A stretch of 64,000 nucleotides of DNA. Origin: Flavobacteriales bacterium (GTDB taxonomy: Bacteria > Bacteroidota > Bacteroidia > Flavobacteriales_F > PHOS-HE28). Positions 13,252-52,465 of the stretch are shown one piece after another. Below the pieces are notes generated by a model that was not told the DNA's origin, made no database searches, and was given only the letters and a program-made list of their open reading frames with translations. The position numbers and the translations under genes were made by a program. The DNA is taken from the NCBI GenBank assembly GCA_046329115.1, contig JAXLVG010000001.1, positions 61,287-125,286 of the forward strand, written 5' to 3'. Each line of letters starts with the position of its first letter. Positions within the stretch are counted from its first letter, which is position 1.

Positions 13252-15219
13252 ATGGTGTTCAAGCGCCCCATCGTGCACGCTGTTGCCCTCGTGTCCGCTG
13301 CCGGTATCGTTGCGCTCTTCGCGGCGTTCAACACAGCGGCCCCCACGGCGGGCCACTTCCACTCTGAAGAGGAGCTGGAGGCGTATGACCGGGCCGCCGG
13401 CCTGCCCTTCGCGGAGAACACCTACTTCAAGACCAGCGGCAAGTGCGAAGGCTGCCATGGCCATGACCCCACCGGGTTCGCCGGCGTTACGCAGGAGGGC
13501 GGTGTGGACGTGAACGTGGTGGACCATTGGCGCAGCTCCATGATGGCCAATAGCGCGCGCGACCCCTTCTGGCGCGCCAAGGTGAGCCACGAAGGACTGG
13601 TGAACCCCGACCACCAGGTGGCCCTGGAGGACAAGTGCACCAGCTGCCATGCCCCCGCCGGAAGGCATGACAAGCACATGCTGGGGCATGGTCCCTACAC
13701 CATCGCGGAGCTCACGCAGGACCCCAATGGACTGGACGGCGTGAGCTGTGTGCCCTGCCACATCCAGAGCGCGGACAGCATCGGAAAGCTCTTCTCCGGG
13801 GAGCTGAAGTTCGATACCCTCGGCCGGCCGCTCTATGGCCCTTATGGGAATGTGTTCGGTTCGCCCATGACCAGCTTCGTGGGCTATGAACCCCTGTTCG
13901 GTGCGCACATCAACCACGCCGGGCTCTGCGCGGGTTGTCATACGCTCATCACCGAGACCGCCGACCTGGAAGGGAACGCCACCGGTGGCGAGTTCGTGGA
14001 ACAGGCCACCTACCACGAGTGGTTGAACTCGAAGTTCAACGACCAGGAGCATCCGGAGACGGGCATCACCTGCCAGGGGTGCCATGTGCCCCGCATCGAC
14101 GATGGTGTGGTGTTGAGCGCGAACTACATCTTCCTCCAGCCCCGCAGTCCGTTCGGGCTGCATGACTTCGCGGGCGCCAACACCTTCATGCTCGGCCTGC
14201 TGAAGAACAACATCGATGCGCTCGGGCTCAGCGCGGACGCCACGCAGTTCGACAGCACCATCCAACGCACGGAACGCATGCTGCGCAATGGTCTCCTGGT
14301 GGAGGCCTCCATGGCGGACCGCACGGCGGACACGGCATTCATCGATGTGAAGCTCACGAACCTGGCGGGCCACAAGTTCCCCAGTGGTTACCCGGCCCGC
14401 CGCGCGTGGGTGGAACTGGTGGTGACCGATGCCAACGGAGACACGCTGTTCCACAACGGCGCCTGGGACGGCAGCTACGATGTGGTCGGCCATGATGCCT
14501 CGTGGGAGCCGCACCACGATGTGATCCGGAACACCGAGGACGTGCAGATCTACGAGATGGTGATGGCCGATGTGAACGGCGACAAGACCACGGTGCTCGA
14601 ACGCGCCGCCGACAAGCTGAAGGACAATCGCCTTACGCCGGAGCTGTTCTCCTCCGCCCACTACACCAACGACACGGTATTTATCGCGAACGTGCCGCCC
14701 ACCGATGCGGACTTCAACCGGTACGACAATGGCGACGAGGGCAGCGGCTCGGACATCGTGCACTACCATGTGCCCATGAACGGGTTCACCGGCCTGGTGA
14801 ACGTGCGTGCCCGGGTGTGGTACCAGAGCGCTCCGCCCCGCTGGATGGAGGAGATGTTCGCCTACAACAGCGCCGAGATCGACACCTTCCGCAACATGTA
14901 CCTGGCCGAGGACGTGTCGCCCTTCCTGGTGAAGGAGGAGGCGTTCAGCGACGTGAGCACGGGCGTGGACGACCTTGCCGAGCTGGGTGTGCGGATCGCG
15001 CCGAACCCAACGCCCGATGGTCAGTTGGTCATCACGGGACTGGGTCCTGAGGTGATCGGTGCCGAGGTGTATGACCTGCGTGGCGGTCTGGTGGCGGCGC
15101 ACCGCGCGAACAGCGGGTCCACCTGGCACCTGCGGTTGCCGGCCGGGCCTTCCACCTACCTGGTGAGCATCCGAACGCCCCAACGCACCTTTGTGGAACG
15201 CGTCGTCAGCCTGCGTTGA
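13252..15219 (+). CDS. multi-heme (5x CxxCH) c-type cytochrome with T9SS type-A C-terminal sorting domain
   Basis: Signal peptide. Heme motifs CEGCH, CTSCH, CVPCH, CAGCH, CQGCH. The C-terminal ~80 aa is T9SS-CTD-like (IAPNPTPDGQLVITGLGPEVIGAEVYDLRGGLV...VSLR). Confidence 0.75.
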   Translation: MVFKRPIVHAVALVSAAGIVALFAAFNTAAPTAGHFHSEEELEAYDRAAGLPFAENTYFKTSGKCEGCHGHDPTGFAGVTQEGGVDVNVVDHWRSSMMANSARDPFWRAKVSHEGLVNPDHQVALEDKCTSCHAPAGRHDKHMLGHGPYTIAELTQDPNGLDGVSCVPCHIQSADSIGKLFSGELKFDTLGRPLYGPYGNVFGSPMTSFVGYEPLFGAHINHAGLCAGCHTLITETADLEGNATGGEFVEQATYHEWLNSKFNDQEHPETGITCQGCHVPRIDDGVVLSANYIFLQPRSPFGLHDFAGANTFMLGLLKNNIDALGLSADATQFDSTIQRTERMLRNGLLVEASMADRTADTAFIDVKLTNLAGHKFPSGYPARRAWVELVVTDANGDTLFHNGAWDGSYDVVGHDASWEPHHDVIRNTEDVQIYEMVMADVNGDKTTVLERAADKLKDNRLTPELFSSAHYTNDTVFIANVPPTDADFNRYDNGDEGSGSDIVHYHVPMNGFTGLVNVRARVWYQSAPPRWMEEMFAYNSAEIDTFRNMYLAEDVSPFLVKEEAFSDVSTGVDDLAELGVRIAPNPTPDGQLVITGLGPEVIGAEVYDLRGGLVAAHRANSGSTWHLRLPAGPSTYLVSIRTPQRTFVERVVSLR

Positions 15220-16134: not shown

Positions 16135-16157
16135 GCCATCGGCTTACCTTGGTGCGC

Positions 16158-17366: not shown

Positions 17367-17370
17367 CTGT

Positions 17371-28900: not shown

Positions 28901-29082
28901 ACGTGTACGTGCAGCTGGATGACCGTTTCCAGGCCAAGGCAACGCTGCAGAGCGTGATCGACCACAGCGACATACCGGAGGTGGTGGAGGAGGCGCGCCA
29001 GCGGCTGGCCACCATCGAAGCGGGTGAACTGGCGCCCCCGGCACCGGCGCAGAACGGAACCAACGAGGACGGCGACCAATGA
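25945..29082 (+). CDS. large tetratricopeptide-repeat protein (secreted/periplasmic)
   Basis: Signal peptide, then TPR-like Ala/Tyr/Leu periodicity along ~1000 aa (YYxxAxxYxxxxxYxxA patterns). Confidence 0.65.
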   Translation: MAPGNFDPLMMSDPASRPAIARLPLVLRWLFLGATLGAALLATAQRPAHFEHPQADLVRAQELFDMAQYGAARSVCDQFVARTRDPHDPARIEAEYYAAICAVRLYNDDASNRLLAFLDAHPENFRVPAINLELFRHYFNLKRWPDALAYAKEVDPNGLGTAERDEFVFKKSYALFQQDQPDAALPEFAKVKDGTSAYAPSATYYTAHIHYTRRNYEAALLGFEKLGNDEAFGKVVPYYIAQIRFLKGDYNALLEYAKPLLADPEGAKRTGDINRLAGEAYYRTGQYKEAQPYLEKSLQRAGVERSDRYVAGYVFYQNGEYKRALDQLNQVAAPAGKPAEDSLAQMAAYHMADCYLKLNEKNYARNAFKRAYDLNKDPRITEDALFNYAKLAYELSFDPYNEAVIALRDYMKAYPNSPRNDEAQRFLMNVYLKTRNHEAALEALDAIRTKDLKLQEVYQQLAFNRGVELYEARKFAEADKAFERSLKFPVDRAVIARTHYWRGESAYAQENYAGALKQYDLLRNSAGSYATDLYEQASYSMGYAYFKQREFGEAATALRRFAGTSGVPKDQKADAMVRIGDCYYVMKDEATAIKWYDDAIAAGSSAKDYALFQKGVCQGLDQQYDKKVATLKKLLDEKPNSAFAADAKFELGETYINMEKDADALRYYQQVINEHPNSPNVRQSMLQSALIHRRRGDLEKAITAFKGVVEKYPTVDGSREALTGLESIYVEQGRVAEYEAYVRGLNFVDQGSLKLDETYFMSAEQLYQAENCDAALGALADYLNKYPNGAYALKATFYSADCLYRAKKDDEALPKFEEVVRRDAGQFMEPSLYAASDILYRQQRWPAALPYFEQLEARAADQRNVLAGQVGQMRCLKRMERTDDAARVAEKVAKSADANAELKAEAGLIVAQGMLGRNELDAAYTKFKAVAKDGRGAVAAEAKYHMAYVRYLQKKYSDAESEVFDLAKKFASQELWKGRAFILLADVYVQLDDRFQAKATLQSVIDHSDIPEVVEEARQRLATIEAGELAPPAPAQNGTNEDGDQ

Positions 29083-30830
29083 GCATCGCACAGCGCATAC
29101 TTCCCCTGGCCCTGGGCCTCGCGATCGCCGTGGTCACCGTTGCGCAGACCAGCGGCCCCACGGAGACCTACAACATCGTGGGCACCGCCGCGCGCACCAT
29201 CAACAACGTGCAGAAGATCGACCTGCGGCCCGAGCCCATCGACACCGTGCTGCCGGACGAGCCCATGCGCTACGACCTGCTGCCCGTGAAGGCCGAGGTG
29301 GCCGCCCGCGCGGACAGCATCGAAGCCTACAAGCTCAACATCCGCCTTACACAGGAACGCCTGTACAAGGGCTTCGTGAAGGCCGGCTTCGGCTTGTACA
29401 CCACCCCGCTCTTCGAGCTGTACTACGACCAGACGCGCAACCGGAAGAACGGCTACGGGCTGCACTACCGGCACATGAGCAGCAACGGGGGCATGGATGA
29501 TGTGGGGCCGAGCGACTACAGCTTCAACCGTGTCGACGGGCACTACAGCGCGTACATGCGGCACCACGAGCTCACCGGTCGCCTCACCTATGACCGCCGG
29601 CGCATCAGCTACTACGGCTATGCGCTCACGGACAGCCTCAATAACCTGCAACTGGTATCCCCGGCGCCGCCGGACGAGCTGGTGAAGCAGGTGTACAACA
29701 ACATCGGCTTCTCCGTTCGCCTGAAGAGCTTGTTCGATGACAGCACCAAGCTGGCGCACGACGTCACGCTGGCCACCAACTTCCTCAAGAACCTGTCCGG
29801 CAGCAGCGAGACCAACGTGCGCCTTAGCGCCGATGTGGGCATGGAGATGGGGCAGGAGACCTACGGCGGCCGCCTGGTGATCGACAACAACGCCTACCGC
29901 CGGGCCAGTGCGCCAAGCGGCGTTTCCGACCGGGTGAACGGCACCATGATCGGCCTGGAGCCCTACGTGAGCACGGGGACACAAGCTTACCACGTGAAGG
30001 TGGGGGCGGGTCTGTACATCGACTCCCAGAACAAGACCACCTTCCATTTCTATCCCCAGGCCTACGCGGACTACCACCTGATGTACGAGGCGCTCGTGTT
30101 CTACGCCGGTGTAGATGGTCGCCGCATCCGCAACTCCTTCCGCAGCCTGACGCAGGAGAATGCCTGGCTGGGCGGAGCCCCGGTGATCGCCAACAGCAGC
30201 CTCATGTATGACCTCTACGGCGGCCTGCGCGCGGCCTTGGGCAAGGACGTGGGCTTCGATGTGCGCGTGAGCAAGAGCTCCACCAAGGACCGGGCGCTCT
30301 TCGTTTCCGCACCGCAGCAGCTGGAGGTGGACAGCGTCCGGTCCGTGCAGTACGGCGACCGCTTCTTCACTGTGTACGATCAGGTGGGCCAGCTGGACAT
30401 CAGCGGGCAGCTTACGTACAGCCGCAACGAGCACCTCGACATCACCGGCCGGATCGACATTTTCACCTACGACACCGATGTGCAGGCCGAGGCCTGGAAC
30501 CTGCCGCCCTACCAACTTTCGCTCGGGGCCCGGTATGACCTGCGCGACAAGCTCATCCTGAAGGTGGAGGCGCAGTTCCTGGGAGCCCGAAAGGCTGGCA
30601 CCTACAGCCTCGCCGCCGATCCCGAGCAGACACTTCCGCCCGGAGCCACCTTGCTGACGAAGGACCTCGATGGCTTCCTGGACCTGTACCTCGGGGTGGA
30701 ATACCGGTACACCAAGCGCCTGAGCCTCTTCCTGGACGCCAGTAACTTGAGCGCCAGCAAGTACGAGCGGTGGTACAACCACCCCACGCAGCGCGGCCTG
30801 ATCATGGGCGGGGCCACCTTCGCGTTCTGA
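29079..30830 (+). CDS. predicted outer-membrane beta-barrel protein, translationally coupled to the TPR gene
   Basis: ATGA overlap with the TPR gene. Signal peptide MSIAQRILPLALGLAIAVVTVAQ. Alternating amphipathic beta-strand patterns (YLGVEYRYTKRLSLFLDASNLSASKYE) and a C-terminal aromatic (GGATFAF). Confidence 0.5.
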   Translation: MSIAQRILPLALGLAIAVVTVAQTSGPTETYNIVGTAARTINNVQKIDLRPEPIDTVLPDEPMRYDLLPVKAEVAARADSIEAYKLNIRLTQERLYKGFVKAGFGLYTTPLFELYYDQTRNRKNGYGLHYRHMSSNGGMDDVGPSDYSFNRVDGHYSAYMRHHELTGRLTYDRRRISYYGYALTDSLNNLQLVSPAPPDELVKQVYNNIGFSVRLKSLFDDSTKLAHDVTLATNFLKNLSGSSETNVRLSADVGMEMGQETYGGRLVIDNNAYRRASAPSGVSDRVNGTMIGLEPYVSTGTQAYHVKVGAGLYIDSQNKTTFHFYPQAYADYHLMYEALVFYAGVDGRRIRNSFRSLTQENAWLGGAPVIANSSLMYDLYGGLRAALGKDVGFDVRVSKSSTKDRALFVSAPQQLEVDSVRSVQYGDRFFTVYDQVGQLDISGQLTYSRNEHLDITGRIDIFTYDTDVQAEAWNLPPYQLSLGARYDLRDKLILKVEAQFLGARKAGTYSLAADPEQTLPPGATLLTKDLDGFLDLYLGVEYRYTKRLSLFLDASNLSASKYERWYNHPTQRGLIMGGATFAF

Positions 30831-30952
30831 GGCGGCTGTTCCCGTTCCGAGGGCGGCACACGGGGGCGGGGTGCGCGTGGTGCGCTGTGGCCGGAACCCT
30901 GCGCCAGGCGCCCGGGATCCGGAACGTTGGACCCCGGCTCCGGCCCCTGTAA

Positions 30953-33122: not shown

Positions 33123-33298
33123 GCGTTCATCGGTGGTGCCTGGCTTCTGTCCATTTCCGGTGATCGGGTCAACCCGTGCTCGAGATCGCTGACGCGATCA
33201 ATGGGCCACGTGCCTTTCGTCAACTACTAAGCTTTTGATCGCTGCGGTTGATGTATCTTGCTCATATGGGCAACGCGTGCTGTTACCTACGTGGCCTA

Positions 33299-33919
33299 AT
33301 GTCAAGGCGAATTCGGAGCCTGGCTAGCGGTGCGTCCATTTGGTTCGTGATCTCATTCGGCATCTGCGTCTGTGCATGTCGGAAGGATCCATCACCCCCG
33401 CATGATCCTTGTCTCGATCTGGTCGATTGGGTGCTGCCTGCCGATCGTACACTTGATCTTGGGTATTCCCACTATTCGCATGATGACATCTATCTGAAGG
33501 GGCCTGCGTTCGAGTATCTATCGTGGGTTACTTGGTCCATACATCTCTCGTCGGACTGGTACCCTGCACCCGGTGATCCCAACGAGTTCTACCCTATGGC
33601 CACCGTCTCCAGTGGAGATTCGATCGGTCTGGTCAGGATGCAGGATCCATCAGCCTGTCTGGATGGGTGGTCTGTAGGCGATACGATACCGGTGTTCTCT
33701 GCTTTGGATAGTTATGGGCGCCTGCTCGATGGATACGGGGAAGGATGTCACTTTGTAGAAGGCCGGTCCTATATGGGTTTTGTAGAGATCATCGATGGTC
33801 ACAAGTATGTCGGCTATGTTGAGTTTCAGAAGCAGTATATCGATGGTGGCCGTCGGTGGTCGATCGTGCAGGTCCGACAGGCCTCCTGCCCCGAGACCGA
33901 TCTGGTGATCGGGGAATAG
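33299..33919 (+). CDS. hypothetical lipoprotein in a low-GC islet
   Basis: MSRRIRSLASGASIWFVISFGICVCAC signal plus lipobox. The region is about 52% GC against about 68% in the flanks, and the protein is Tyr/Trp/Asp/His-rich. Confidence 0.45.
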   Translation: MSRRIRSLASGASIWFVISFGICVCACRKDPSPPHDPCLDLVDWVLPADRTLDLGYSHYSHDDIYLKGPAFEYLSWVTWSIHLSSDWYPAPGDPNEFYPMATVSSGDSIGLVRMQDPSACLDGWSVGDTIPVFSALDSYGRLLDGYGEGCHFVEGRSYMGFVEIIDGHKYVGYVEFQKQYIDGGRRWSIVQVRQASCPETDLVIGE

Positions 33920-33972: not shown

Positions 33973-36900
33973 CTACTTCAGCAACGTCACGTGCCCGATC
34001 AGGTCGTGCTTCTTGCGGGTGATGAGGTCGCGGAAGTGGAGCTTCCAGGCGTAGACATCCTCCTTCACCAGTTCGCCGCTCATGCGCCCGTCCCACGTTT
34101 CGCCCACGCGGCGGCTCTCGAAGATCAGTTCCCCCCAGCGGTCGAAGACGAGCAGGTCATAGTCCGCAACGTTCTGCGGGTTGTTGAACACGGGCCTGAA
34201 GCCCTCGTTCATGCCGTCGTCATTCGGTGTGAAGGCATTGGGCACATGCACGATGAGCTCCCCCAGCACCACGACCGGATGACAGGTGGTGTCCACGCAA
34301 CCGTTGGCGTTCATCGCGGTCAAGCACACGGTGTAGGTGCCATCGAGCACATCGGGGAAGGTGAAGGACGGCTCGCCTTCCGTGGACGCGCCCAGCCCGG
34401 CGAAGTCCCAGAAGAAGCTTGTGGCGAAGGCGCTCTGGTTCATGAAGTCGACCGACGTGATGCCGGTGATCACCGTGTCCTCCACAGCCGTGAACGACGC
34501 GATCACCGGCGGTGGTGAGGCCACGGATGCGGTGGCCGAGGCCAGGCACCCGTTCGCGTCCTGCATCATCAGCATGTAACTGCCCGCACACAGTCCGGCG
34601 AACGCAGGCGTGCCCTGCCAGGTGAGGCCGCCATCCGCACTGAACAGCACACCCTCGGTGTCCACCACGGTGGCCGTACCGTCGCACTGCCCGGGGCAGA
34701 GCTCGTCCGTGGCCAGCACCGCGTCGATCACCAAAGGAGGCGGTTGTCCGATGGTAAGCTCCACGAACCCCTTGCAGCCAAAGGCATCGGTGATGATGAC
34801 ATCGTAAGCCCCGGCGCACAGCCCAGTTGCGCTCACGTCCGTCTGTCCCGCCACACCGCCGCTCCATTGGAACGTGTAGTCCGGTGTACCTCCGCTTACC
34901 TGAAGCGATGCGCTGCCATCGCAGGAACCATGGCATACCGCATCGGTCACGGTCGTGGTGGCCTGGATCGCCGGCGGCACGCTGACCACCACGGCGGCCT
35001 GATCGTTCGCACACGGCGCCGTGGCGTTCACCATGTAGGTGTACGTGCCGGGCTGGTCAACGGCCGGATCGAACAGGCCGCCCATGGCCGCGCCCCCCGG
35101 TGCAGACCAGGTGCCACCAGCGTCCGGCGAGCCACCAAGTGCGGTGAACAGGTCGACGGGCGCGCCGTCCGGACAGAGCGTCAGGGTATTGTCCGCGCCG
35201 GCATCGGGTGGCAATACCACTTCGGTGACCACCGTGGCCGTGGCGGCAGCGCACGGTGGAGTGCCGTGGACCATGTAGGTGTAGGCCCCGGACGGATCCA
35301 CCGCCGGATCGAAGTTCGCGCTGTGCGTGAGGCCGTTGAACGACCAGGAGCCTCCGGGATCGGGCGTCCCACCGAGCCATGCAAAAAGGTCCATGACCCC
35401 GTCGGTGCTGCAGAGCACGGTCGCTCCATCGGTACCCGGATCGGGCGGTTGCACAACGGAGATCAGCACCTGGCTGCTGGCGCTCTGGCAGGGGGGCGGT
35501 ACGCTCAGCGTGTAGGTATAGAGGCCCGGCTGCATCGTGGCCGGATCGAACACGCCGCCCTGCACCACGCTCGGGCCGGTCCAGCTTCCCCCCACATCCG
35601 GTGTGCCGCCCAATTGTGCGAAGAGGTCGATCGCGCTGCCATCCGCGCACAGGCTCGCCGCGCCGTTCCAGCCCGGATCCGGTTCCGCCGTCACCGCCAT
35701 CAGCACCTGTGCGCTGGCGGATGGGCAGGGCCATGTGCCCGCCACCGTGTAGGTGTAGGCCCCGGGAAGGTCCGTGGCCGGATTGAAGAGGGAGGTATGC
35801 GGCTGCCCATCAGGACCGGTCCAGGAACCGCCGGGCTGTGGTGCGCCCCCAAGCACCGTGAACAGGTCGCTCGCCGCGGCGCTCGCGCAGAGCACCGCGC
35901 TGCCATCGCTGCCCGCATCCGGCATGCTCTGGACCGCTACGACCACCTGGCTCTGCACGCTCGTGCAAGGAGCGGGCACATCGATGGTGTAGGTGTACGT
36001 GCCCGGGGCCATGCTGCCCGGTTGGAACAAGCCCCCGACCACCGGGCTGGGACCGCTCCATGTGCCGCCATTGTCCGGTGTGCCGCCCAGTTGATCGAAG
36101 AGCACCACCGCACTGCTGTTCGCGCAGAGCGTAACGGATCCATCCGTACCAGGGTCCGGTGCGGATACGACGTTCACAAGGACCGTGGACGTATCGGCGG
36201 GACAGGGTGCGATACCTGGTACGGTGTATGTGAGGGTCCCGGAAAGGTCGACCGCAGGGTCGAAGAGCGCACCGTGCGGTGCCCCGTTGAAGGTCCATGA
36301 TCCGCCACTTTGCGGCGACCCGGCAAGTTCCGCGAAGAGGTCCAGGGCAGGGGAGGACGCGCACAAGGTCACCGATCCATTTCCACCGGCATCCGGGGGA
36401 GCGTGAATGGTCACCAGAACCTCCGCGTCAACGCTTGGGCATGGTGCCGTGCCGGCCACGGTGTACGTGTAAATGCCCGACGCATCGATCGCGGGGTCCA
36501 CTTGGTCGCCGTGGGGGATCCCATTGAACGACCATTCGCCATCGGGGTCGGGGCTTCCTCCCAACAGTGCATCCAGGTCCACGACCGCGCTCGTGGTGCA
36601 CAGGTCCACGCTGCCGCCCGAGCCGGGGTCCGCCGGTTCCACCAGTGCGATCGTCACCGTGCTGCTTGTGCTGACGCACGGTGGTGGCACGTTGATGGCG
36701 TAGGTGTAGGTGCCGGGTGGGTCGTTCGCGGGATCGAAGAGCGCACCGTGGGCCGCACCGTTCGGATCGGTCCAGACGCCACCTGCGTCGGGCGTTCCGC
36801 CGAGCAGCCCAAGGAGCGGGAGCGCTGCAGCGGAACTGCAGAGCGTGGCGTTCCCGGGCAGACCTGCATCGGGGGTGCTGGTCACCGTCATGGTCACCGT

Positions 36901-39900
36901 GGCGCTCGCGCTCGGGCATGGTGCGGTACCGCTGACCGTGTAGGTGTAGATGCCGTTGGCATCCACGGAAGGGTCGAACGAACCGTTGTGCGGCGCCCCG
37001 TTGTAGGTCCATGCTCCTCCGGGATCCGGTGTGCCGCTGAGCTGCGCGAACAGGTCCACCGCAGGACTTCCGGTGCACAACAACAGCGCTCCATCGCCGC
37101 CTGGATCGGGAGGCGACGTGACGCTCACGTTCACCTGTGCGGCATCGTTGGCGCATGGCGCCGTGCCGGTCACGAGGTAGGTGTAAATGCCCGGCTGCAT
37201 CGTGCCCGGGTCGAACTGACCATTGCTCACGGCACTGGGCCCGCTCCAAGTGCCGCCGGCATCGGGCGTTCCACCGAGCTCCGCGAACAGGTCGATGCCG
37301 GACCCCGCAGCGCATGCGCTCAGCGTTCCATCGAGGCCTGCATCCGGAGGGGCCAGCTCGCTCACGGTGACGGTGGCCGCATCGCCCGGGCACGGTGCGG
37401 TACCTGAAAGCGTGTAGGTGTAGATGCCCGGAGCGTCGTTGTCCGGGTCGTACGAGGCGCTGTGGGATGCGCCGCCGACGCTCCAGGTCCCGCCGGCATC
37501 CGGCGTTCCCCCGAGCAGGGCGAAGAGGTCCATGGGGTCGTCCGTGCTGCAAACGGAAAGCGTTCCATCCTCGCCTGCATCCGGCGGTGCGTTCACGGTC
37601 ACTACCACGGTGGCCTGGTCATCGGGGCACGGGGCTGTACCCGTTACCGTGTATGAGTAGTTCCCCGGAGCATCGCTTCCGGGCGCGAAGGAGCCCGCGT
37701 GCGGCGCGCCAGCGAAGGTCCAGTTGCCGCCGGGTTGCGCGCCTGTGAGCGCATCGATCAGCGTTGCCGTGGGCGAGGTGGTGCAAACGGTCAACGCACC
37801 ATCCTGCCCGGCCTCGGGCGGTGCCTGCACCAGCACGGTGACAGTACTGCTCGCGTTCGTGCAAGGCGGTGGCACCGTGATGGTGTAGGTGTAGACCCCT
37901 GCTGCGTCGATCGCCGGGTCGAACATGCCGCCATGGGGAGTGCCGTTCACGCTCCATGTCCCGCCGGCATCCGGCGTGCCCCCGAGTTGCGCGAACAGGT
38001 CGATCGGGTCGCCGCTGGCGCAGACAACGAGCGCGCCATTGGTGCCGGGCTCCGGGTTGTTGGTCACCGAAACGGTCACCAGGGACTGGTCAGCAGGACA
38101 TGGCGCGATGCCGGCAACCGTGTAGGTGTATGCACCGGTCGCATCCGTTCCGGGCGAGAAGGTGTTCCCGTGCGGTACACCATTGAACGACCAGGAACCG
38201 CCGGCGTCCGCGCCCGCAAGCACCGTGAACAGGTCGATCGGCGGACTGCTGATGCACAGCAAGGCATCGCCATCCGCTCCAGCGTCGGGTGGCTGCACGA
38301 TGTTCACTGTGACGGTCGCGCTTTGGCTGGTGCAGGGGGGCGGCGCGTTCACCGTGTAGGTGTAGACCCCGGCCGCATCCACGGTCGGGTCCACCTGGCC
38401 GCTGTGCGGTGCCCCGTTGAAGCTCCAGGACCCACCGGCATCCGGAGTGCCCCCAAGCGCGGTGAAGAGGTCCGCTGCAGCGTCTGACGCGCACAGGGTG
38501 ATCGATCCATCCGTTCCCGGGTCGGGGTCGGTGGTAACGGCAACGGTCACGTTGGACTGATCGTCCGGGCACGGCGTGACGCCGGCGACCGTGTAGGTGT
38601 ATACGCCGGCCGCATCCGTTCCGGGATCGAACGTGCCGCCATGAGGCGCACCGTTGAAGGTCCACGTACCGCCGGTCTGTGCGCCGCTGAGCTCACCGAA
38701 CAGAGGCAATGGAGAGCCACTGACGCACAGCAGCGCATCACCGTCCGCACCGGCGTTCGCTGGTTGAACCACCATGACGGTCACTGTGGCGCTCTGGCTC
38801 GTGCACGGCGGCGGAACATCGACGGTGTAGGTATACACCCCTGCAGCCTCCGTGGCCGGGTCGAACGTGCCGGTGTGGGGCGCACCATTGAAGCTCCAGG
38901 ATCCACCTGGATCCGGTGTGCCGCCCAGGTTTGCGAACAGATCGATCGCGGCAGCGTTCGCGCACAAGGTGATCGAGCTGTTCATGCCGGGGTCCGGGTC
39001 GTTCGTCACCGCCACCGTCACCGCTGATTGGTCGTTCGGGCACGGAGCGATACCCGGAATGGTGTAGATGTACGCACCGGCAGCATCCAGGCCCGGGGTG
39101 AACAGGTTGCCGTGCGGAGCCCCGTTGAGCGACCAGGATCCCCCTGCTTGCGCCCCGCTCAGTTCGGCGAACAGGTCCAGCGCGGGGCCGCTGATGCAGA
39201 GGAGCGCATCCCCATCCGTGCCCGCGTCCGGCGGTTGAACGACGTCGACGGTCACGGTCGCGCTCACGTTCGCGCAGGGTGGGGGAACGGTGATGGTGTA
39301 GGTGTAGACACCCGGTGCGTCCGTTCCAGGGACGAAGGTGTTCCCGTGGGGGGCGCCGTTCGCGCTCCACGTGCCACCCAGGTCGGGTGTTCCTCCCAAT
39401 ACGGTGAACAGGTCGAACGTGCCGTCGCTGGCGCAAACGGTTGTGGTACCGTTCGTTCCCGGATCCGGTTGGGCGGTCACGGTGACATCCACGGTCGCCT
39501 GATCGGTTGGACAGGGCGCCGCACCCGTGACGGTGTAGATGTACGTGCCAGGGAGGTCGCTTCCGGGCGTGAACACATTCCCATGCGTGGCACCCCCGAA
39601 CGTCCACGTGCCTCCAGCTTCCGGAGCGCCTCCCAGTTCGGCGAAGAGGTCAATGGAGGGACTGCTGATGCACAGGATCGTTGCGCCGTCCGCCCCAGCG
39701 TCCGGTTGCTGGTTCACCGACACGATCACCTCGGCCTGGTCGTTGGGGCATGGTGCTGTGCCAGTGACCACGTACGTGTATTGGCCGCCGGCGTCCACGG
39801 ACGGATCGAAGGAGTTGCCGTGCGGGGATCCGTTGAACGACCAGCTCCCGCCAGGCTGCGCACCACCCAGCGACGCGAACAGGTCCACCGGTGTTCCGGA

Positions 39901-42900
39901 TGAGCATAAGGTGATCGAACCATCCGCGCCGGCGTCCACAGGCTGGTTCTCGGCAATGGTGACGGTCGCCTGGTCGTTGGGGCAGGGTGCGGTACCGGTC
40001 AACGTGTAGGTGTACACACCGGGCGTGCTGGTGCCGGGCGAGAAGGTGCCGTTGCTGGGCGCTCCACCGGGATCGGTCCAGGTGCCGCCGGCCTGGGCGC
40101 CACCGAGCAGGGGAAGGAGCGCAGCGGTGGCGTCGTTCGCGCAGACGGTGAGCGTGGCATCCGTGCCGGCGTCCACGGGCTGGTTCTCGGTGACGGTAAC
40201 AGTGGCCTGGTCGTTAGGACAAGGCGCGGTGCCGGTCAATGTGTAGGTGTACACACCGGGCGCACTGGTGCCAGGGGTGAAGGTGCCGTTGCTGGGAGCT
40301 CCACCGGGATCGGTCCAGGCGCCGCCAGCCTGGGCGCCAACGAGCAATGGAATGAGCGCAGCAGTGGCGTCGTTCGCGCAGACGGTGAGCGTGGCATCCG
40401 TGCCTGCGTCCACGGGCTGGTTCTCGGTGATGGTGACGGTCGCCTGATCGTTGGGGCAGGGTGCAGTACCTGTAAGCGTGTAGGTGTAAACGCCGGGCGT
40501 GCTGGTGCCGGGGGTGAAGTTGCCGTTACTGGGCGCTCCACCGGGGTCGGTCCACGCACCGCCGGCCTGGGCGCCACCGAGCAGTGGAAGGAGCGCAGCG
40601 GTGGCGTCGTTCGCGCAGACGGTGAGCGTGGCATCCGTGCCGGCATCCACAGGCTGGTTCTCGGTGATAGTGACGGTCGCCTGATCGTTGGGGCAGGGTG
40701 CAGCACCTGTAAGCGTGTAGGTGTATACGCCAGGCGTGCTGGTGCCGGGGGTGAAGGTGCCGTAAGTGGGCGCTCCACCGGGGTCGGTCCACGCACCGCC
40801 GGCCTGTGCACCACCCAGCAGAGGCAGGAGCGCAGCGGTGGCGTCGTTCGCGCAGACGGTGAGCGTGGCATCCGTTCCAGCGTCCACGGGCTGGTTCACC
40901 GTCACGGTCACGGTGGCTTGGTCGACACCCGGGCAGGGGGCGGCGCCGTTCACACTGTAGGTGTACGTTCCGGGAGCACTGGTCCCCGGGGTGAAGGTGC
41001 TGCCGGCCGTGGCACCGCCGGGTCCGGTCCAGGTTCCTCCCGTCATCGGAGCACCGCCTAGCAACGCGAACAGGTCGAAGGGTGCACTGTTGGCGCAGAC
41101 GGTGATCTGTGCATCGGTTCCCGCGTTAACGGGCGGCACAACGGTCACGGTCACCTGGTCAGTGCCTGTGCATGCGGGATGGCCGGCCTGCGAAACGGTG
41201 AGCGTGTAGGTCGTGGTGGTTCCGGGTGTGGCCGTCGGCGCGGCGATGTTGGTGGCGGAAAGGCCGGTGGCCGGCGACCAGGAATAGATGAAGGCGGGCG
41301 GTGGACCGCAGTCCACCACGCCGCTCCAGGTGGTCCCGTTCGGGAATGGCGGAGTGTCCGCGAACACCAAGTTGCCCTGGCCATCGTACAGGTTGTAGGC
41401 GTGTTCGTTGTTGAACAGCACACTCGGGTAGTAGATGAGCGCGATCGCATCGCCGTGTTCCACATTGATCGTCACCGAGCCGCTCGATCCGTTCGGCAGC
41501 GTCCAATCCTGTTCTACCCCGTTGATCACGATGCCGATCACCGCACCATCCCAGCCGTCGCCGAAGGAGTCCAGGAGGTCCAGCTGATAAGTGCAGGGTT
41601 GTGGCGGAAGGCCTCCGGAGATCACACTTCCGTTCAAGAGGGTGCTGCCGCCCTCGCAGATGCTGGTGTTGGCCCCGGCATCCACCACGATCGGCGGGGT
41701 GATTGTCACCACGATCGTGGTGTCGTAGCTGCAGCCGAAGTCGTCCACCGCATGGTACACGTAGTTGTATGTCCCCGCCGCTGCCTGCTGAAGACAGATC
41801 TGCTCGCAGCCGGGACCTGTGCTCACGATGCCGGGACCGGTCCACCACGTGCTGTCGCAGCCCGCTCCGTACTGCGGTGTGTAGCTGATTGCGTTCGCGT
41901 AGAGCGATGGGTCCAGATCGATGTTCCAGTCACACAGGAATCCGTTGTCCAGCTGCCACATGTCGCAGATGGTCAAGGTCCACAGCCCGTTCAATTGCGA
42001 GCCCACCAGGCCGGTTAGCGGTGACAGGCTTTGGTAGGTGCCCGGAGGAAGCTCCCATCCGAAGCCTGATCCATTGGCGTTCGCATAGGCCGCCATGGTG
42101 CCGTTGGACGACGTGTTGGCGAAGCAGTATTGTGCGCAGGTGCCGGGCTGCGGGTTCGCCTCGTCCGGGTCCACCGGTTGGCCCAGCAGGGTCTCTTGGA
42201 TGATCCCTTGTTGGTGCAGGATGACGGATTGGCCGCTCGGGCTGGTGATGGTGATCACCAGGTCGCCCAGCCAGCTGTGCTCGATGTTCATGCACAGCCC
42301 GAGCAATTGGTTGATGTTCGTCAGTGTGGCGCCCGGAGCGAACTGGGTGAGGTAGAGCTGGGCCTCGAAGCACGAGCCAACGTCGTCCGGCACGAAGACG
42401 CCATTGCCATAGGTGGTCTCCGGCTCATCAACGTACGGTGTCGGGTTCACCACGCCGTCCAGGCAGAGCTGTTCGCCCGCACAACCGGTGGTGCTGCCGC
42501 CCGTGCCCGTGAAGGTGGGGGGCGTGCCCACCCAAACCTGCAGGTCGATGCGGTTAACACTTGCGCAACCGTTGTTGTCCGTGACCGTGAGCTGCACGGT
42601 ATGCACTCCTGGATCCGTGAAGGTGTGGGCGATGGTGGGCACGGCCGAGGTCGTTGTGGTGCCGTCATCAAAGTCCCAGGTCCAGCTGACAAGGTTGTAT
42701 CCCGGTTGAGCCGTGGATCCGCTGCCATCAAAGTTCACCGAGGTGCCCATGCAGACGCGCGCGGGTGCCGCCTGCGTCATGGTGGCGGCTGCCACCGGTG
42801 GCGTGCACGGCTGGAAGCAATGGATGGAAGCTGCAAAGACCCCGGTGCCCGTGTTGTTCGAGTGCCAGACGAACGTGAGGCAACCCGAAGCATTGCCGGT

Positions 42901-43272
42901 ACTGGCGGAGATGGTCTGCCCCTGGAGTGAAGTACCGGTGAAGGAGCCCAGCAAGGGGGCCGCCGTGTTGGGGCCGTCGTAGATGGTCAGATTGTCCACC
43001 GGGGCCACGCCGGCGAGCGAAAGGTTGAACGTGACGAAGGACAGGCTGATGAGGCTTCCGGGGACATCCGGACAGAGGGTGTAGGTGTCGTCCTCGTTGT
43101 TGGTGTACCCGGTGGCTCCCTGCCCACCGCTGTCCAGGAAGGCCCCGGCACAGGTGTTATCGCTGCCGCCCGTGACCAGGAAGGGCTGCGCTGCGATCCC
43201 CAGGGACAGCAGGACACCGGCTGCGACAGCGGCCCATCGGCATCGCCGAACAGGTCTGCCATCCGCGGTCAC
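33973..43272 (-). CDS. giant T9SS type-B-CTD adhesin (about 3099 aa): CUB-like - PKD - proprotein-convertase P-domain - 26x 79-aa Ig-like repeats - SprB repeats - gliding-motility C-terminal domain
   Basis: An in-frame GTG at 43272 gives the signal peptide (V/M)TADGRPVRRCRWAAVAAGVLLSLGIAAQ. The ORF extends further to 43461 without a signal peptide. PKD signature WTWDFDDGTT. P-domain HSWLGDLVITITSPSGQSVILHQ...GLWTLTICD. SprB repeats (CHGSCDGSASLQVSGGTPDYTFQW). C-terminal VPNAFTPNDDGMNEGF...LLVFDRWGELIFE...GHVTLLK. Confidence 0.8.
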   Translation of the reverse strand: MTADGRPVRRCRWAAVAAGVLLSLGIAAQPFLVTGGSDNTCAGAFLDSGGQGATGYTNNEDDTYTLCPDVPGSLISLSFVTFNLSLAGVAPVDNLTIYDGPNTAAPLLGSFTGTSLQGQTISASTGNASGCLTFVWHSNNTGTGVFAASIHCFQPCTPPVAAATMTQAAPARVCMGTSVNFDGSGSTAQPGYNLVSWTWDFDDGTTTTSAVPTIAHTFTDPGVHTVQLTVTDNNGCASVNRIDLQVWVGTPPTFTGTGGSTTGCAGEQLCLDGVVNPTPYVDEPETTYGNGVFVPDDVGSCFEAQLYLTQFAPGATLTNINQLLGLCMNIEHSWLGDLVITITSPSGQSVILHQQGIIQETLLGQPVDPDEANPQPGTCAQYCFANTSSNGTMAAYANANGSGFGWELPPGTYQSLSPLTGLVGSQLNGLWTLTICDMWQLDNGFLCDWNIDLDPSLYANAISYTPQYGAGCDSTWWTGPGIVSTGPGCEQICLQQAAAGTYNYVYHAVDDFGCSYDTTIVVTITPPIVVDAGANTSICEGGSTLLNGSVISGGLPPQPCTYQLDLLDSFGDGWDGAVIGIVINGVEQDWTLPNGSSGSVTINVEHGDAIALIYYPSVLFNNEHAYNLYDGQGNLVFADTPPFPNGTTWSGVVDCGPPPAFIYSWSPATGLSATNIAAPTATPGTTTTYTLTVSQAGHPACTGTDQVTVTVVPPVNAGTDAQITVCANSAPFDLFALLGGAPMTGGTWTGPGGATAGSTFTPGTSAPGTYTYSVNGAAPCPGVDQATVTVTVNQPVDAGTDATLTVCANDATAALLPLLGGAQAGGAWTDPGGAPTYGTFTPGTSTPGVYTYTLTGAAPCPNDQATVTITENQPVDAGTDATLTVCANDATAALLPLLGGAQAGGAWTDPGGAPSNGNFTPGTSTPGVYTYTLTGTAPCPNDQATVTITENQPVDAGTDATLTVCANDATAALIPLLVGAQAGGAWTDPGGAPSNGTFTPGTSAPGVYTYTLTGTAPCPNDQATVTVTENQPVDAGTDATLTVCANDATAALLPLLGGAQAGGTWTDPGGAPSNGTFSPGTSTPGVYTYTLTGTAPCPNDQATVTIAENQPVDAGADGSITLCSSGTPVDLFASLGGAQPGGSWSFNGSPHGNSFDPSVDAGGQYTYVVTGTAPCPNDQAEVIVSVNQQPDAGADGATILCISSPSIDLFAELGGAPEAGGTWTFGGATHGNVFTPGSDLPGTYIYTVTGAAPCPTDQATVDVTVTAQPDPGTNGTTTVCASDGTFDLFTVLGGTPDLGGTWSANGAPHGNTFVPGTDAPGVYTYTITVPPPCANVSATVTVDVVQPPDAGTDGDALLCISGPALDLFAELSGAQAGGSWSLNGAPHGNLFTPGLDAAGAYIYTIPGIAPCPNDQSAVTVAVTNDPDPGMNSSITLCANAAAIDLFANLGGTPDPGGSWSFNGAPHTGTFDPATEAAGVYTYTVDVPPPCTSQSATVTVMVVQPANAGADGDALLCVSGSPLPLFGELSGAQTGGTWTFNGAPHGGTFDPGTDAAGVYTYTVAGVTPCPDDQSNVTVAVTTDPDPGTDGSITLCASDAAADLFTALGGTPDAGGSWSFNGAPHSGQVDPTVDAAGVYTYTVNAPPPCTSQSATVTVNIVQPPDAGADGDALLCISSPPIDLFTVLAGADAGGSWSFNGVPHGNTFSPGTDATGAYTYTVAGIAPCPADQSLVTVSVTNNPEPGTNGALVVCASGDPIDLFAQLGGTPDAGGTWSVNGTPHGGMFDPAIDAAGVYTYTITVPPPCTNASSTVTVLVQAPPEAGQDGALTVCTTSPTATLIDALTGAQPGGNWTFAGAPHAGSFAPGSDAPGNYSYTVTGTAPCPDDQATVVVTVNAPPDAGEDGTLSVCSTDDPMDLFALLGGTPDAGGTWSVGGASHSASYDPDNDAPGIYTYTLSGTAPCPGDAATVTVSELAPPDAGLDGTLSACAAGSGIDLFAELGGTPDAGGTWSGPSAVSNGQFDPGTMQPGIYTYLVTGTAPCANDAAQVNVSVTSPPDPGGDGALLLCTGSPAVDLFAQLSGTPDPGGAWTYNGAPHNGSFDPSVDANGIYTYTVSGTAPCPSASATVTMTVTSTPDAGLPGNATLCSSAAALPLLGLLGGTPDAGGVWTDPNGAAHGALFDPANDPPGTYTYAINVPPPCVSTSSTVTIALVEPADPGSGGSVDLCTTSAVVDLDALLGGSPDPDGEWSFNGIPHGDQVDPAIDASGIYTYTVAGTAPCPSVDAEVLVTIHAPPDAGGNGSVTLCASSPALDLFAELAGSPQSGGSWTFNGAPHGALFDPAVDLSGTLTYTVPGIAPCPADTSTVLVNVVSAPDPGTDGSVTLCANSSAVVLFDQLGGTPDNGGTWSGPSPVVGGLFQPGSMAPGTYTYTIDVPAPCTSVQSQVVVAVQSMPDAGSDGSAVLCASAAASDLFTVLGGAPQPGGSWTGPDGQPHTSLFNPATDLPGAYTYTVAGTWPCPSASAQVLMAVTAEPDPGWNGAASLCADGSAIDLFAQLGGTPDVGGSWTGPSVVQGGVFDPATMQPGLYTYTLSVPPPCQSASSQVLISVVQPPDPGTDGATVLCSTDGVMDLFAWLGGTPDPGGSWSFNGLTHSANFDPAVDPSGAYTYMVHGTPPCAAATATVVTEVVLPPDAGADNTLTLCPDGAPVDLFTALGGSPDAGGTWSAPGGAAMGGLFDPAVDQPGTYTYMVNATAPCANDQAAVVVSVPPAIQATTTVTDAVCHGSCDGSASLQVSGGTPDYTFQWSGGVAGQTDVSATGLCAGAYDVIITDAFGCKGFVELTIGQPPPLVIDAVLATDELCPGQCDGTATVVDTEGVLFSADGGLTWQGTPAFAGLCAGSYMLMMQDANGCLASATASVASPPPVIASFTAVEDTVITGITSVDFMNQSAFATSFFWDFAGLGASTEGEPSFTFPDVLDGTYTVCLTAMNANGCVDTTCHPVVVLGELIVHVPNAFTPNDDGMNEGFRPVFNNPQNVADYDLLVFDRWGELIFESRRVGETWDGRMSGELVKEDVYAWKLHFRDLITRKKHDLIGHVTLLK
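34990..41150 (-). repeat. array of about 26 tandem 237-bp (79-aa) intragenic repeats; copies 2-5 (about 39.96-40.93 kb) are nearly identical at the DNA level
   Basis: Recurrence at 237-bp spacing of gtgtacacaccgggcg... (40011, 40248, 40485, 40722, 40959). The protein repeat is DAGTDATLTVCANDATAALLPLLGGAQAGGAWTDPGGAPSNGTFTPGTSTPGVYTYTLTGTAPCPNDQATVTI. Confidence 0.85.
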
Positions 43273-43476
43273 ATGGTCTTGGGCAGGGTCGCGGCGTAAT
43301 GTCACGTCATACAGTGAAGGCCCGGACGAACGTGTCCACCGGCCCCGCCAAACTATCGGCCCACCCCGTTCGATGGATGTCCGGATACCGCTTTCATGGG
43401 ACAATTCGACGAACCGCCACGTGTGAGCATCCAGAAGGTCACCCCTGTCGATGGACCCCAAGGGGGCGGTGCCCGC

Positions 43477-50449: not shown

Positions 50450-51796
50450 TCACCGGACCAGTTTCACCTTGCCCGTATAGGTCTCGGCCAGGTGCAGGCT
50501 CTCGCGGACGTCCACAACCCAGACGTATTCACCGGAGGCACAGTACTCCCCGCGGTTCTGCGGCTTTCCGGCCCAAGGCAGCGTGGCATCCTTGGTCTCG
50601 TACATCAGGTTTCCGTTCAGGTCGTAGACGGAGAGGGTGAACTTGACCCCAAGCTTCTGGAGCGCCGCCGGCATGAAGGTGTCCTCCTTGCCGTCGCCGT
50701 TCGGGCTGAAGCTGAACGGTGCATCAAGGTTGTAATCCTTGGCGATCCGGACCTCCTTCATCACCTTGTCCTCGCAACCGATCGGGTTGGTCACGGTGAG
50801 CTCCACCTGATAGGTGCCTTGGTTCTTGTAGATGTGGTCGGGGTGGGGGATGTCGCTGGATTGACCATCGCCGAAGTCCCAGTGGTACTTCACCCCGCCC
50901 AGGCTGCGGTTCTCGAAGTGGATGGAGGGCAGGTGCCCATCGTACTCCTGACGTACCAGATTGAACGCAGCCTTCGGCGCCTCGTGGATCACGATCACAT
51001 CGCTGCTCGGCTTGTTCTGGATGAAGCCGCCACCGGCGGAGCTCATGGAGAGCATCACCTGGTAGCGCCCGGGCTTGGTGAAGGTGTGTTCCGGATTGGC
51101 CTTGTTGCTGAAACTGCCGTCCCCGAAGTTCCAAAGGTAGATGCCGTCCTCGGGCATGTGCTCCACCTTGAAGTCGACCGACGTGCCTGCACATGCCTGG
51201 CTCACGCTCGCCCGGAAGGTGCGCTGCTCCTTCTCTCCGCTGGTGACCGGGGGGGCGGCAGTGACCGGAGGCTGGTTGGCCGCTTTGGCGCGGCGCTGCC
51301 CGGCATCCACTGGCTTGGTTGACGAAGAGGCTCCCTTTGCGGTCCCTTCAGCAGACGCGGTCTGCGAGGCGGCAGCGGTGGCCGGGTTGCTTGCGATGTC
51401 GCTGCTTTCGGCGGGTGACGGTTGTTCAGCAGCACCCGTGCTCGCTTTCGGTGCTACAGGCATTTCGTCCTCAGCAGCAATTTGCTTGGCGTCGGTACCT
51501 GCCTGGGGTGTTGCCGCCTGCGGGGTAGTGGTCGCGCCCGTTCCCTCCAGCGCGATGCCGCTCTTGTTCTCCTCGGTGCTTTCCGTGAAGTACCAGAACG
51601 CGCCGCCACCTATCAGCAGGCCACCGGCCAAGAGAGCGGCAAGACTCCAGCGCGAGCGCGCGGAACCACCGGTGCCAGCGTTCAGCGACCTCTCCATCTG
51701 GGCCCAATCCGCACTGTTGTAAGGCACCTCGAACTGGTCGAGGGCCTTCCGCACGTGCTGCTCGAAGGCGTCATGGGCCGGTTCGTGCATATGCAT
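50450..51796 (-). CDS. membrane-anchored anti-sigma-like protein with two PKD domains and a T9SS type-B (gliding-motility) C-terminal domain
   Basis: Cytoplasmic N-terminus of about 55 aa, a single TM segment (WSLAALLAGGLLIGGGAFWYF), and an Ala/Thr/Pro/Ser-rich linker of about 130 aa. Two PKD signatures (WNFGDGSFS, WDFGDGQSS). The C-terminus APFSFSPNGDGKEDTFMP...VYDLNGNLMYETKD...GKVKLVR is homologous to the adhesin CTDs. The gene starts 4 nt after the ECF sigma gene. No canonical zinc-binding anti-sigma motif is present. Confidence 0.6.
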   Translation of the reverse strand: MHMHEPAHDAFEQHVRKALDQFEVPYNSADWAQMERSLNAGTGGSARSRWSLAALLAGGLLIGGGAFWYFTESTEENKSGIALEGTGATTTPQAATPQAGTDAKQIAAEDEMPVAPKASTGAAEQPSPAESSDIASNPATAAASQTASAEGTAKGASSSTKPVDAGQRRAKAANQPPVTAAPPVTSGEKEQRTFRASVSQACAGTSVDFKVEHMPEDGIYLWNFGDGSFSNKANPEHTFTKPGRYQVMLSMSSAGGGFIQNKPSSDVIVIHEAPKAAFNLVRQEYDGHLPSIHFENRSLGGVKYHWDFGDGQSSDIPHPDHIYKNQGTYQVELTVTNPIGCEDKVMKEVRIAKDYNLDAPFSFSPNGDGKEDTFMPAALQKLGVKFTLSVYDLNGNLMYETKDATLPWAGKPQNRGEYCASGEYVWVVDVRESLHLAETYTGKVKLVR

Positions 51797-51800
51797 GGGA

Positions 51801-52382
51801 TCAAGGGAGCTTGTGCTCCTTTTTAAGCAGTTTCTTCAGGTTCTGTTTCGCCTTGGCCAGGTTGCTCTTGCTCGTACCGATGTTGATGCCCAGCAGCTCG
51901 GCGATCTCCTTGTGCGTCATCTCCTCGAAGACGTACAAGTTGAACACCGTGCGATAGGCCGGTGTAAGCTTCTGCATGGCATTGATCACGTCCGCCGGCT
52001 TCAGGTCCGGCATGTCCTCCGGGCCTTCGTCCTCCAGCACATCCTCCTCGTCCTGGTCCCCGAAGTCCTCGATGCTGCGGTCCTCGCCCAGCAGCAGGTA
52101 GGAGTTCTTGGCACGCCGGAAGTAGTCGATGGCCGTGTTCACCATGATCCGCCGGATCCAGCCCTCGAAGCTGCCGTTCCGGTTGAAGGCCGCCATGGAC
52201 CGGAACACCTTGATGAAGCCATCCTGCAGGATGTCCTTGGCTTGATCGTGGTTCTTGGTGTACCGAAGGCATACGGCCATCATTTTGCCATAGAAGAGCT
52301 CGTACACGCGCTGCTGGCTCCGGCGGTCCCCAGCGATGCACCCATCGATGATGCCGGAGAACGCCGATACCTCCGCCTCCAT
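51801..52382 (-). CDS. ECF-family RNA polymerase sigma-70 factor
   Basis: Region 2 (RVYELFYGKMMAVCLRYTKNHDQAKDILQDGFIKVF) and region 4 helix-turn-helix (VFEEMTHKEIAELLGINIGTSKSNLAKAKQNLKK). Start chosen at MEAEV; the ORF extends to 52454. Confidence 0.8.
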   Translation of the reverse strand: MEAEVSAFSGIIDGCIAGDRRSQQRVYELFYGKMMAVCLRYTKNHDQAKDILQDGFIKVFRSMAAFNRNGSFEGWIRRIMVNTAIDYFRRAKNSYLLLGEDRSIEDFGDQDEEDVLEDEGPEDMPDLKPADVINAMQKLTPAYRTVFNLYVFEEMTHKEIAELLGINIGTSKSNLAKAKQNLKKLLKKEHKLP

Positions 52383-52465
52383 GCTCTGCCATGTCCCCTC
52401 AAGACGCGATCCTTCGCGCAGGGTTGCCAGCGTAACGGGGCTGACCGTGGCCATGCGGGGAAGGT

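Follow-up and report, generated by a model that had tools for sequence, protein, structure and literature searches.

A candidate variable-length stalk of immunoglobulin-like units on a predicted type IX-secreted giant protein of a Flavobacteriales bacterium

A single gene in the 64,000-nucleotide stretch of contig JAXLVG010000001.1, from an uncultured Flavobacteriales bacterium, analyzed here (positions 61,287 to 125,286; referred to as the window, in whose numbering positions are given) encodes a giant repetitive protein that is probably a Periscope-type surface protein. By this we mean a stalk of immunoglobulin (Ig)-like units that varies in length between strains, on a protein with a type B sorting domain of the T9SS (type IX secretion system). 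A preliminary description of the window, made from its letters, had suggested that the number of repeats might be variable. A comparison of strains supports this: the array holds 24, 26 or 28 units, and every change falls in one block, u02-u05, close to the N-terminal head of the protein.

The array consists of exactly 26 tandem units of 78 to 81 amino acids (aa; 234 to 243 bp), at 34972..41130. About 26 units at 34990-41150 had been described, so that number and extent both hold, the latter to within about 20 nt. Also as described, the repeats are intragenic and lie inside a giant adhesin-like gene, a single minus-strand open reading frame (ORF) with a longest extent of 33973..43461. The 237-bp, or 79-aa, periodicity is seen as self-match peaks in both DNA (lag 237 nt, 0.52) and protein (lag 79 aa, 0.42), and a YTY-type core motif appears 26 times in the translation, at a spacing of 78 to 80 aa. 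A profile hidden Markov model built from the units recovers all 26 of them with E values of 1e-29 to 1e-36; this shows regularity and is not independent support, because the units match their own model by construction. Tandem Repeats Finder lists two stretches only, 39921-41000 (4.5 copies, 86% matches) and 37242-37683, since the DNA of the others is less than about 70% identical. Thirteen columns are invariant in 26/26 units, including C12, W33, Y56 and C64, and the cysteines of the array number exactly 52. Two conserved cysteines per unit had been pointed out before and are thus present throughout; the disulfide proposed along with them would join C12 to C64 within each unit.

The four units of the block, copies 2 to 5 counted from the head, had been taken to be almost identical in DNA and to be undergoing homogenization. 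Neither claim is supported by closer comparison. They are 91 to 95% identical in protein and 82 to 93% in DNA, with differences mostly at third codon positions (synonymous divergence, dS, 0.21-0.93; nonsynonymous divergence, dN, 0.02-0.05; their ratio, omega, 0.06-0.11), and the longest exact run common to two of them is 59 nt. These values indicate that the four units arose later than the others in the array and that purifying selection on them is strong; their DNA appears neither freshly duplicated nor continuously homogenized.

The other large part of the array, u06-u26, is diversified, its 21 units being 32 to 76% identical in protein. Within it, DAG...APCP-type and DPG...PPPC-type units alternate across u07-u14, with 63 to 76% aa identity within a type and 44 to 54% between types (permutation p ~0.013). 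For u21-u24, the alternation is visible in clustering only, and it is not significant across u15-u26. The two-unit super-repeat of the preliminary description therefore stands for u07-u14, and loosely for u21-u24, and fails for the array as a whole; a global 474-bp super-period was considered and rejected, since the alternation is significant for u07-u14 only. Neighboring domains of multidomain proteins are usually less than 50% identical, and adjacent domains in the diversified part come close to this, at roughly 40 to 60% identity. When A/B pairs are duplicated, an array grows longer and near-identical domains still do not become neighbors. The u02-u05 block is an exception to that pattern.

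How does the number of units differ between strains? Orthologs were sought in a 5.8-billion-protein database with the 690-aa head as the query, and copy number was compared among five full-length versions from the 90%-identity cluster of the giant protein, a cluster that was located via the version on contig L085. The window protein, identical to P0287 (MFN8349900.1, 'MAG: PKD domain-containing protein [Flavobacteriales bacterium]'; MAG, metagenome-assembled genome), has four block units and 26 units in total. So does L085 (P0286), an independent assembly with 6 mismatches in 9300 nt, and the collapse of the array that had been suspected in the window's assembly is not borne out. Two versions are longer, with six block units and 28 in total. 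In one of them, L081 (P0291, JGI 3300009870), the block reads u2, X, u3, u4, 4*, u5; unit X differs by 20 to 36 nt from every window unit, and 4*, 10 nt from u4, is a mosaic in which the first half mixes u4 and u5 variants and the tail matches u4. The other, L094 (P0289, ENA ERZ22666005), has six units of its own, 11 to 29 nt apart from each other, and comes from a strain whose DNA has diverged by 1.6% in the head and 3.1% in the tail. L082 (P0290) has two block units, u2 and u5 only, and 24 in total.

In all five versions the head has the same length, and the tail, from u06 to the C terminus, measures 1988 aa throughout; protein identity across versions is 98.6 to 100% in the head and 96 to 100% in the tail. 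The change in length is therefore confined to the homogeneous block and takes place in whole units, in frame. Recombination in two-unit steps was considered as the source of the 158-aa steps and rejected, as the two extra units of L081 are separate single-unit insertions. The mosaic and the unique units argue for real unequal recombination over duplication by the assembler.

Phase variation, which had also been suggested, is a different matter. An array acting as an on/off switch, through repeat slippage and frameshift, would have in its favor only the general tendency of repeats to recombine, and we consider it almost certainly wrong. The units are multiples of 3 nt, so that gain or loss of a unit keeps the reading frame, resulting in length variation and not in an on/off switch, and all five full-length versions are in frame. 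Moreover, no homopolymer of at least 7 nt is found in the gene or in the ~330 nt upstream, nor are there short-period repeats in the gene.

The division of the array into two tiers is also seen in a sister species. Its ortholog, on the 373-kb contig L084, has a head 76% identical to that of the window protein and ~29 units with a period of ~240 nt. It has a head-proximal block of its own, o03-o07, in which the units are 88 to 92% identical in protein and 83 to 90% in DNA, again with differences mostly at third positions, and an A/B alternating stretch, o08-o16, comes after the block. Between the two species, the blocks are only 59 to 68% identical. The two-tier arrangement is therefore older than the separation of the species, and within each lineage the block undergoes concerted evolution. 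The middle of the L084 array (~15959-17650) contains many frameshifts and is called as five ORFs, which may reflect long-read assembly error in the repeats or decay of the gene. In a scan of a genome collection that lacked the genome of the window itself, the best match was a 74%-identical ortholog on a contig that ends five units into the array.

The rest of the protein is consistent with export to the cell surface. From N to C terminus, it comprises a probable signal peptide, CUB-like, PKD and P-domain modules, unassigned modules, the 26 units, an SprB repeat, a second PKD domain and a C-terminal domain (CTD) of type B. Public gene callers place the start at a GTG at 43272 or, in another call, at 43305 (3110 aa). 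A Sec signal peptide is probable at the N terminus, where inspection by eye picks out RPVRRCR as a basic n-region, WAAVAAGVLLSLGIAA as a hydrophobic core, and then AAQ ahead of PF; at the aligned site, ortholog P0001 has MITAWTITLLLTFLTEQVQAQ and then PF, with QAQ aligned before the PF. In the head, the CUB-like module is a weak Pfam match, and no catalytic domain was detected by Pfam in the protein. At the extreme C terminus, CHU_C PF13585 scores 54.5 bits (cut-off 27) and TIGR04131 scores 48.7 bits (cut-off 35; aa 3072-3161 of the 3162-aa ORF). With a sorting domain above curated cut-offs, the protein is predicted to be a T9SS type B cargo. One of the unassigned head modules, at ~41300..41700 on the minus strand (roughly aa 590-720 of the 3162-aa ORF), carries the motif DSFGDGWDG (CTYQLDLLDSFGDGWDGAVIGIVINGVEQDW...NNEHAYNLYD); it matches no Pfam family and is conserved in orthologs P0001, P0002 and P0011.

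Type B CTD proteins anchor via PorP-like proteins, as in the pairs SprB-SprF and PG1035-PorP (PMC9143113). By analogy with SprB and PG1035, the CTD would keep the C terminus of the giant protein attached to a PorP/SprF-like protein in the outer membrane. In total, the 26 Ig-like units would form an extended stalk of ~100 nm, at an assumed ~4 nm per domain, and the stalk would hold a non-catalytic binding head (CUB-like, PKD, P-domain) distal to the cell. The number of units in the diversified part, u06-u26, is fixed; we propose that some of this part was built by duplication of two-unit A/B segments, and that unequal homologous recombination adds or removes whole in-frame units in the u02-u05 block, leaving 2, 4 or 6. 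Surface anchoring, the shape and length of the rod, the role of the head as an adhesin and a selective value of length variation are what we infer from this arrangement.

Several points weigh against such a variable-length stalk. The evidence on the giant protein consists of sequences and predicted structures. No PorP/SprF-like gene was found among the 20 window ORFs scanned. The variation is small (24 to 28 units, around ~26), and its functional effect may be nil. In DNA, the block units differ by 7 to 18%, short of the near-identity that characterizes the Periscope Proteins that vary most. The copy-number evidence comes from metagenome assemblies throughout. Finally, the 24-unit form may have arisen by collapse during assembly: on its contig, which has 5.6x coverage, u5 directly follows u2, and the junction falls in a run of 41 to 59 nt shared at unit starts.

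The last two of these points invite the view that the true number of units is fixed and that the differences arose from short-read metagenome assembly or from mixing of strains. Certainly, assemblies break at the block: seven Logan contigs from different runs (L083, L088-L093) stop after 809 aa of the gene, having reached 14 aa into u02, and two others, L086 and L087, end at 777 and 794 aa. The 1113-aa neighbor protein is present with identical sequence on 19 public contigs. Most database orthologs are 'partial' proteins cut inside the array, because short-k assemblies break systematically at the block, and as a consequence neither the number nor the length of genes of this family can be relied on in MAGs. 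Nonetheless, we regard an artifact as the source of all the differences as quite unlikely. The extra units are distinct sequences, as X in L081 illustrates, and two strains have six block units each with different unit sets. In the L094 block, the longest exact run shared between units is 92 nt; judging by the k127_ in its name, the contig was probably assembled with a k-mer of 127, long enough to resolve these repeats. In addition, the 26-unit form was assembled independently twice, and the sister species has a five-unit block. A stalk whose length truly varies remains the reading that we prefer.

A separate issue is whether the repeats are a stalk at all, or are themselves the binding surface of a multivalent adhesin. 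Each unit might bind a polysaccharide, another cell or a flagellum, and the block would then alter avidity or specificity and not reach. Strong purifying selection on the block units and the strongly conserved signature of the family would fit with this; some Periscope stalk domains also bind ligands (PMC8201768), and GhpA and SprB, discussed below, are repeat-rich T9SS adhesins. However, the conserved Cys, Trp, Tyr, Gly and Pro residues occupy core or structural positions of the Ig fold, while the surface varies freely among units, and there is a separate head of recognized binding modules, one that is common to paralogs with zero or one unit. It therefore seems unlikely to us that binding is the main task of the units, and we continue to consider them a stalk.

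Predicted structures bear on both the fold and the nearest relatives of the unit. AlphaFold was run for one unit, with the 26 units as the alignment, and for the tandem u09-u10. The one-unit model is all-beta, with a predicted local distance difference test score (pLDDT) of 96.8 and a predicted template modeling score (pTM) of 0.84; the tandem model (pLDDT 96.7, pTM 0.77) has about six non-strand residues between the domains. Short Pro-rich linkers join the units. In Foldseek, the tandem model matches tandem I-set Ig arrays, including NEGR1, titin I65-I70 and Robo, with template modeling (TM) scores of 0.33 to 0.61. The models and matches support the assignment of the unit, made in the preliminary description, as an Ig-like beta-sandwich, similar to solved Ig domains. 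Titin I-band and other eukaryotic I-set arrays share only 9 to 19% sequence identity with the unit, and the second conserved Cys lies in a loop before the last strand, unlike that of titin-type I-set Ig domains, which is in strand F. The biological context differs as well, and the resemblance is at most one of analogy or very remote homology.

By sequence, the unit has no catalogued home. Three units or unit pairs gave no Pfam match even at E<=10, aa 778-2830 of the whole protein matched nothing in Pfam or NCBIfam, and a PDB sequence search with the unit profile and the whole protein found no solved chain matching the repeats, the whole-protein matches being to PKD domains only. The unit thus appears to fall outside the bacterial Ig-like families catalogued in Pfam and NCBIfam (Big_x, PKD, Ig_7 and others). 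It is nevertheless common. A search of 1.84 billion representative proteins with the unit profile returned 4970 at E<=1e-3, of which 934 reach E<=1e-30; the longest array among the relatives counts 31 units. Named members are 'gliding motility-associated C-terminal domain-containing', 'T9SS type B sorting domain-containing' and 'Ig-like domain-containing' proteins, from Flavobacteriales MAGs, Flavobacterium orientale and Marivirga. Both Cys and the Trp are conserved in 95 to 98% of 1947 domain instances. One relative, P0121 (MCW5899457.1, 2871 aa, from a Flavobacteriales MAG), is a different T9SS protein with about eight units that are 97% identical at a 79-aa period; it also has a 158-aa two-unit super-repeat, with 87% identity at lag 158 versus 55% at lag 79. 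Across the family, duplication has therefore proceeded in both one- and two-unit steps.

Among solved bacterial structures, the one that comes closest to the tandem model is GhpA of Aureispira (PDB 9flv, 9fls, 9g8b, 9flu, 9flw), a T9SS-secreted grappling hook with a stem of 52 Ig-like repeats with intramolecular disulfides and hooks of 240 nm (bioRxiv 10.1101/2024.01.29.577165). Both are giant T9SS substrates, actual or predicted, with a long chain of slightly varying Ig-like repeats. One can envision the giant protein as a rigid multimeric appendage of this kind, like the heptameric GhpA hook, that catches prey or particles. In Foldseek, the tandem model matches five GhpA fragments with E values of 1e-4 to 5e-4 and 14 to 21% identity. 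However, TM-scores to GhpA (0.34-0.51) are no better than those to the eukaryotic arrays, and the unit matches neither GhpA nor any other solved chain by sequence, at E<=10 with the unit profile or E<=0.01 with the whole protein. GhpA has twice the number of repeats, 52 versus 26 here, the heads differ, and no PorP/PorE homologs lie downstream of the giant gene, unlike ghpB and ghpC. We consider a GhpA-like appendage improbable; a Periscope-type stalk remains the reading that we favor.

SprB of Flavobacterium johnsoniae offers a second comparison. It too is a large repetitive protein that carries a CTD of type B and is thought to be held by a PorP-like protein, and one SprB repeat is found near the CTD here. 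However, there is one PF13573 match only; the 26 units are of another, uncatalogued family without PF13573 matches, and no sprF-like gene is adjacent. Orthology to SprB was considered and rejected, a single SprB repeat being present.

The closest parallel in organization is with the Periscope Proteins (SasG/Aap, Rib, Sgo_0707, CdrA), defined by repeats of more than 50 aa, at least 80% identical, that vary in number from strain to strain (Whelan et al. 2021; PMC8201768). These are surface proteins with a distal N-terminal head, a C-terminal anchor and a stalk whose folded domains follow in tandem, connected by short Pro-rich linkers, an organization that the giant protein would share. Units u02-u05 lie within that definition in length and protein identity, although they are 4 of the 26 units only. 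Repeat number differs between close strains (24, 26, 26, 28, 28) and the frame is kept, here in metagenome assemblies. The predicted rod is represented here by the tandem model, with its pTM of 0.77, short linkers and matches to extended titin and Robo arrays. There are also clear differences. SasG, Aap and Rib use C-terminal cell-wall attachment motifs, whereas the protein here has a T9SS type B CTD and would sit at the outer membrane of a member of the Bacteroidota; neither Bacteroidota nor T9SS is mentioned in the Periscope paper (PMC8201768). The range here is 24 to 28 units, and the block DNA is 82 to 93% identical, not near-identical. Outside the block, the 21 units keep to the usual pattern, with neighbors about 50% identical or less.

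The features of the gene and its paralogs are collected in Table 1.

Table 1. Positions of the giant gene, its parts and its upstream paralogs in the window
Feature	Position	Strand	Remarks
Gene for the giant, predicted surface protein	33973..43272	(-)	3099 aa, from the GTG start of public gene callers
Probable Sec signal peptide (VTADGRPVRRCRWAAVAAGVLLSLGIAAQ, then PF)	43186..43272	(-)	Read from sequence
N-terminal head: CUB-like, PKD, proprotein-convertase P-domain and unassigned modules	41131..43185	(-)	Pfam
Unit u01, first Ig-like repeat, 81 aa	40888..41130	(-)	71% identical to first unit of sister-species ortholog
Homogeneous, copy-number-variable block u02-u05, 4 x 79 aa	39940..40887	(-)	91-95% aa, 82-93% nt identity
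Diversified part u06-u26, 21 units	34972..39939	(-)	Constant number; 32-76% aa identity among units
A/B alternating sub-array u07-u14, four two-unit super-repeats of ~471-474 bp	37819..39705	(-)	
Single SprB repeat (PF13573)	34852..34959	(-)	Pfam, 35 bits (cut-off 28)
T9SS type B C-terminal sorting domain (CHU_C PF13585 / TIGR04131)	33979..34251	(-)	Pfam and NCBIfam
Upstream paralog, 1121 aa	43477..46842	(-)	Same head and type B CTD, no 79-aa unit
Upstream paralog, 1113 aa	46941..50282	(-)	Same head and type B CTD, one 79-aa unit (E 4e-21)

The giant gene is the last of three tandem paralogs (1113, 1121 and 3099 aa) and gives the impression of having arisen from a paralog by amplification of its one unit. 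At 50450..52454 on the minus strand, directly upstream of these three genes, is a gene for an extracytoplasmic function (ECF) sigma factor (217 aa) followed after 4 nt by one for a 448-aa protein with two PKD domains and CHU_C. The latter gene occupies the position expected for an anti-sigma factor, and the sister species (L084) has kept this arrangement. On the other side, between the giant gene and gyrB and convergent with the former, is a 223-aa ORF (33248..33919, plus strand) that has no Pfam match; its position is kept in L085 and L094, and the counterpart ORF in L084 is only 71 aa. The direct neighbors of the giant gene are thus this ORF, gyrB and the paralogs.

The wider surroundings are housekeeping genes (secDF, gyrB, murB, dnaB, glutamine synthetase), with a GC content of ~64%. 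Three further CHU_C proteins are encoded in the window, which also has weak, sub-threshold Por_Secre_tail matches; it contains no T9SS core genes, and no tRNA genes were found in it. The closest relatives of the giant protein are named Flavobacteriales bacterium. Elsewhere in the window, a 20-bp tandem repeat (1.9 copies, 30819..30857) lies at the end of the ORF at 29079..30830, just upstream of gyrB. A 655-aa ORF at 13252..15219 on the plus strand weakly matches multihaem cytochrome-like families (MtrC/MtrF-like, cytochrome c554, c7), and only one of these matches is not below its curated cut-off.

Taken on its own, the giant protein joins known kinds, the giant adhesins of the T9SS and the variable stalks of the Periscope type; it would be an ordinary adhesin stalk. 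What it defines is a widespread 79-aa Ig-like repeat with the signature C...GGxW...GxYxY...PC, which goes undetected by the present models of Pfam and NCBIfam. Giant T9SS cargo makes up much of the Bacteroidota cell surface, and most of it is annotated by its sorting domain alone. The strain-level change in length, limited to a small block, is in an environmental bacterium, and the principle has so far been described mainly for pathogens. None of these points would surprise a specialist. One can speculate, tentatively and with considerable doubt, that the head-proximal block is a maintained length-tuning hot-spot in T9SS surface filaments. The stalk would then be two-tiered, a constant shaft plus a protein-homogeneous cassette that sits in the same place across species and is repeatedly recombined, and what selection acts on would be either reach or the evasion of phages, grazers or antibodies. 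If that is true, the Periscope principle would extend to outer-membrane proteins of the Bacteroidota and to an uncatalogued Ig-like family of ~5000 protein clusters.

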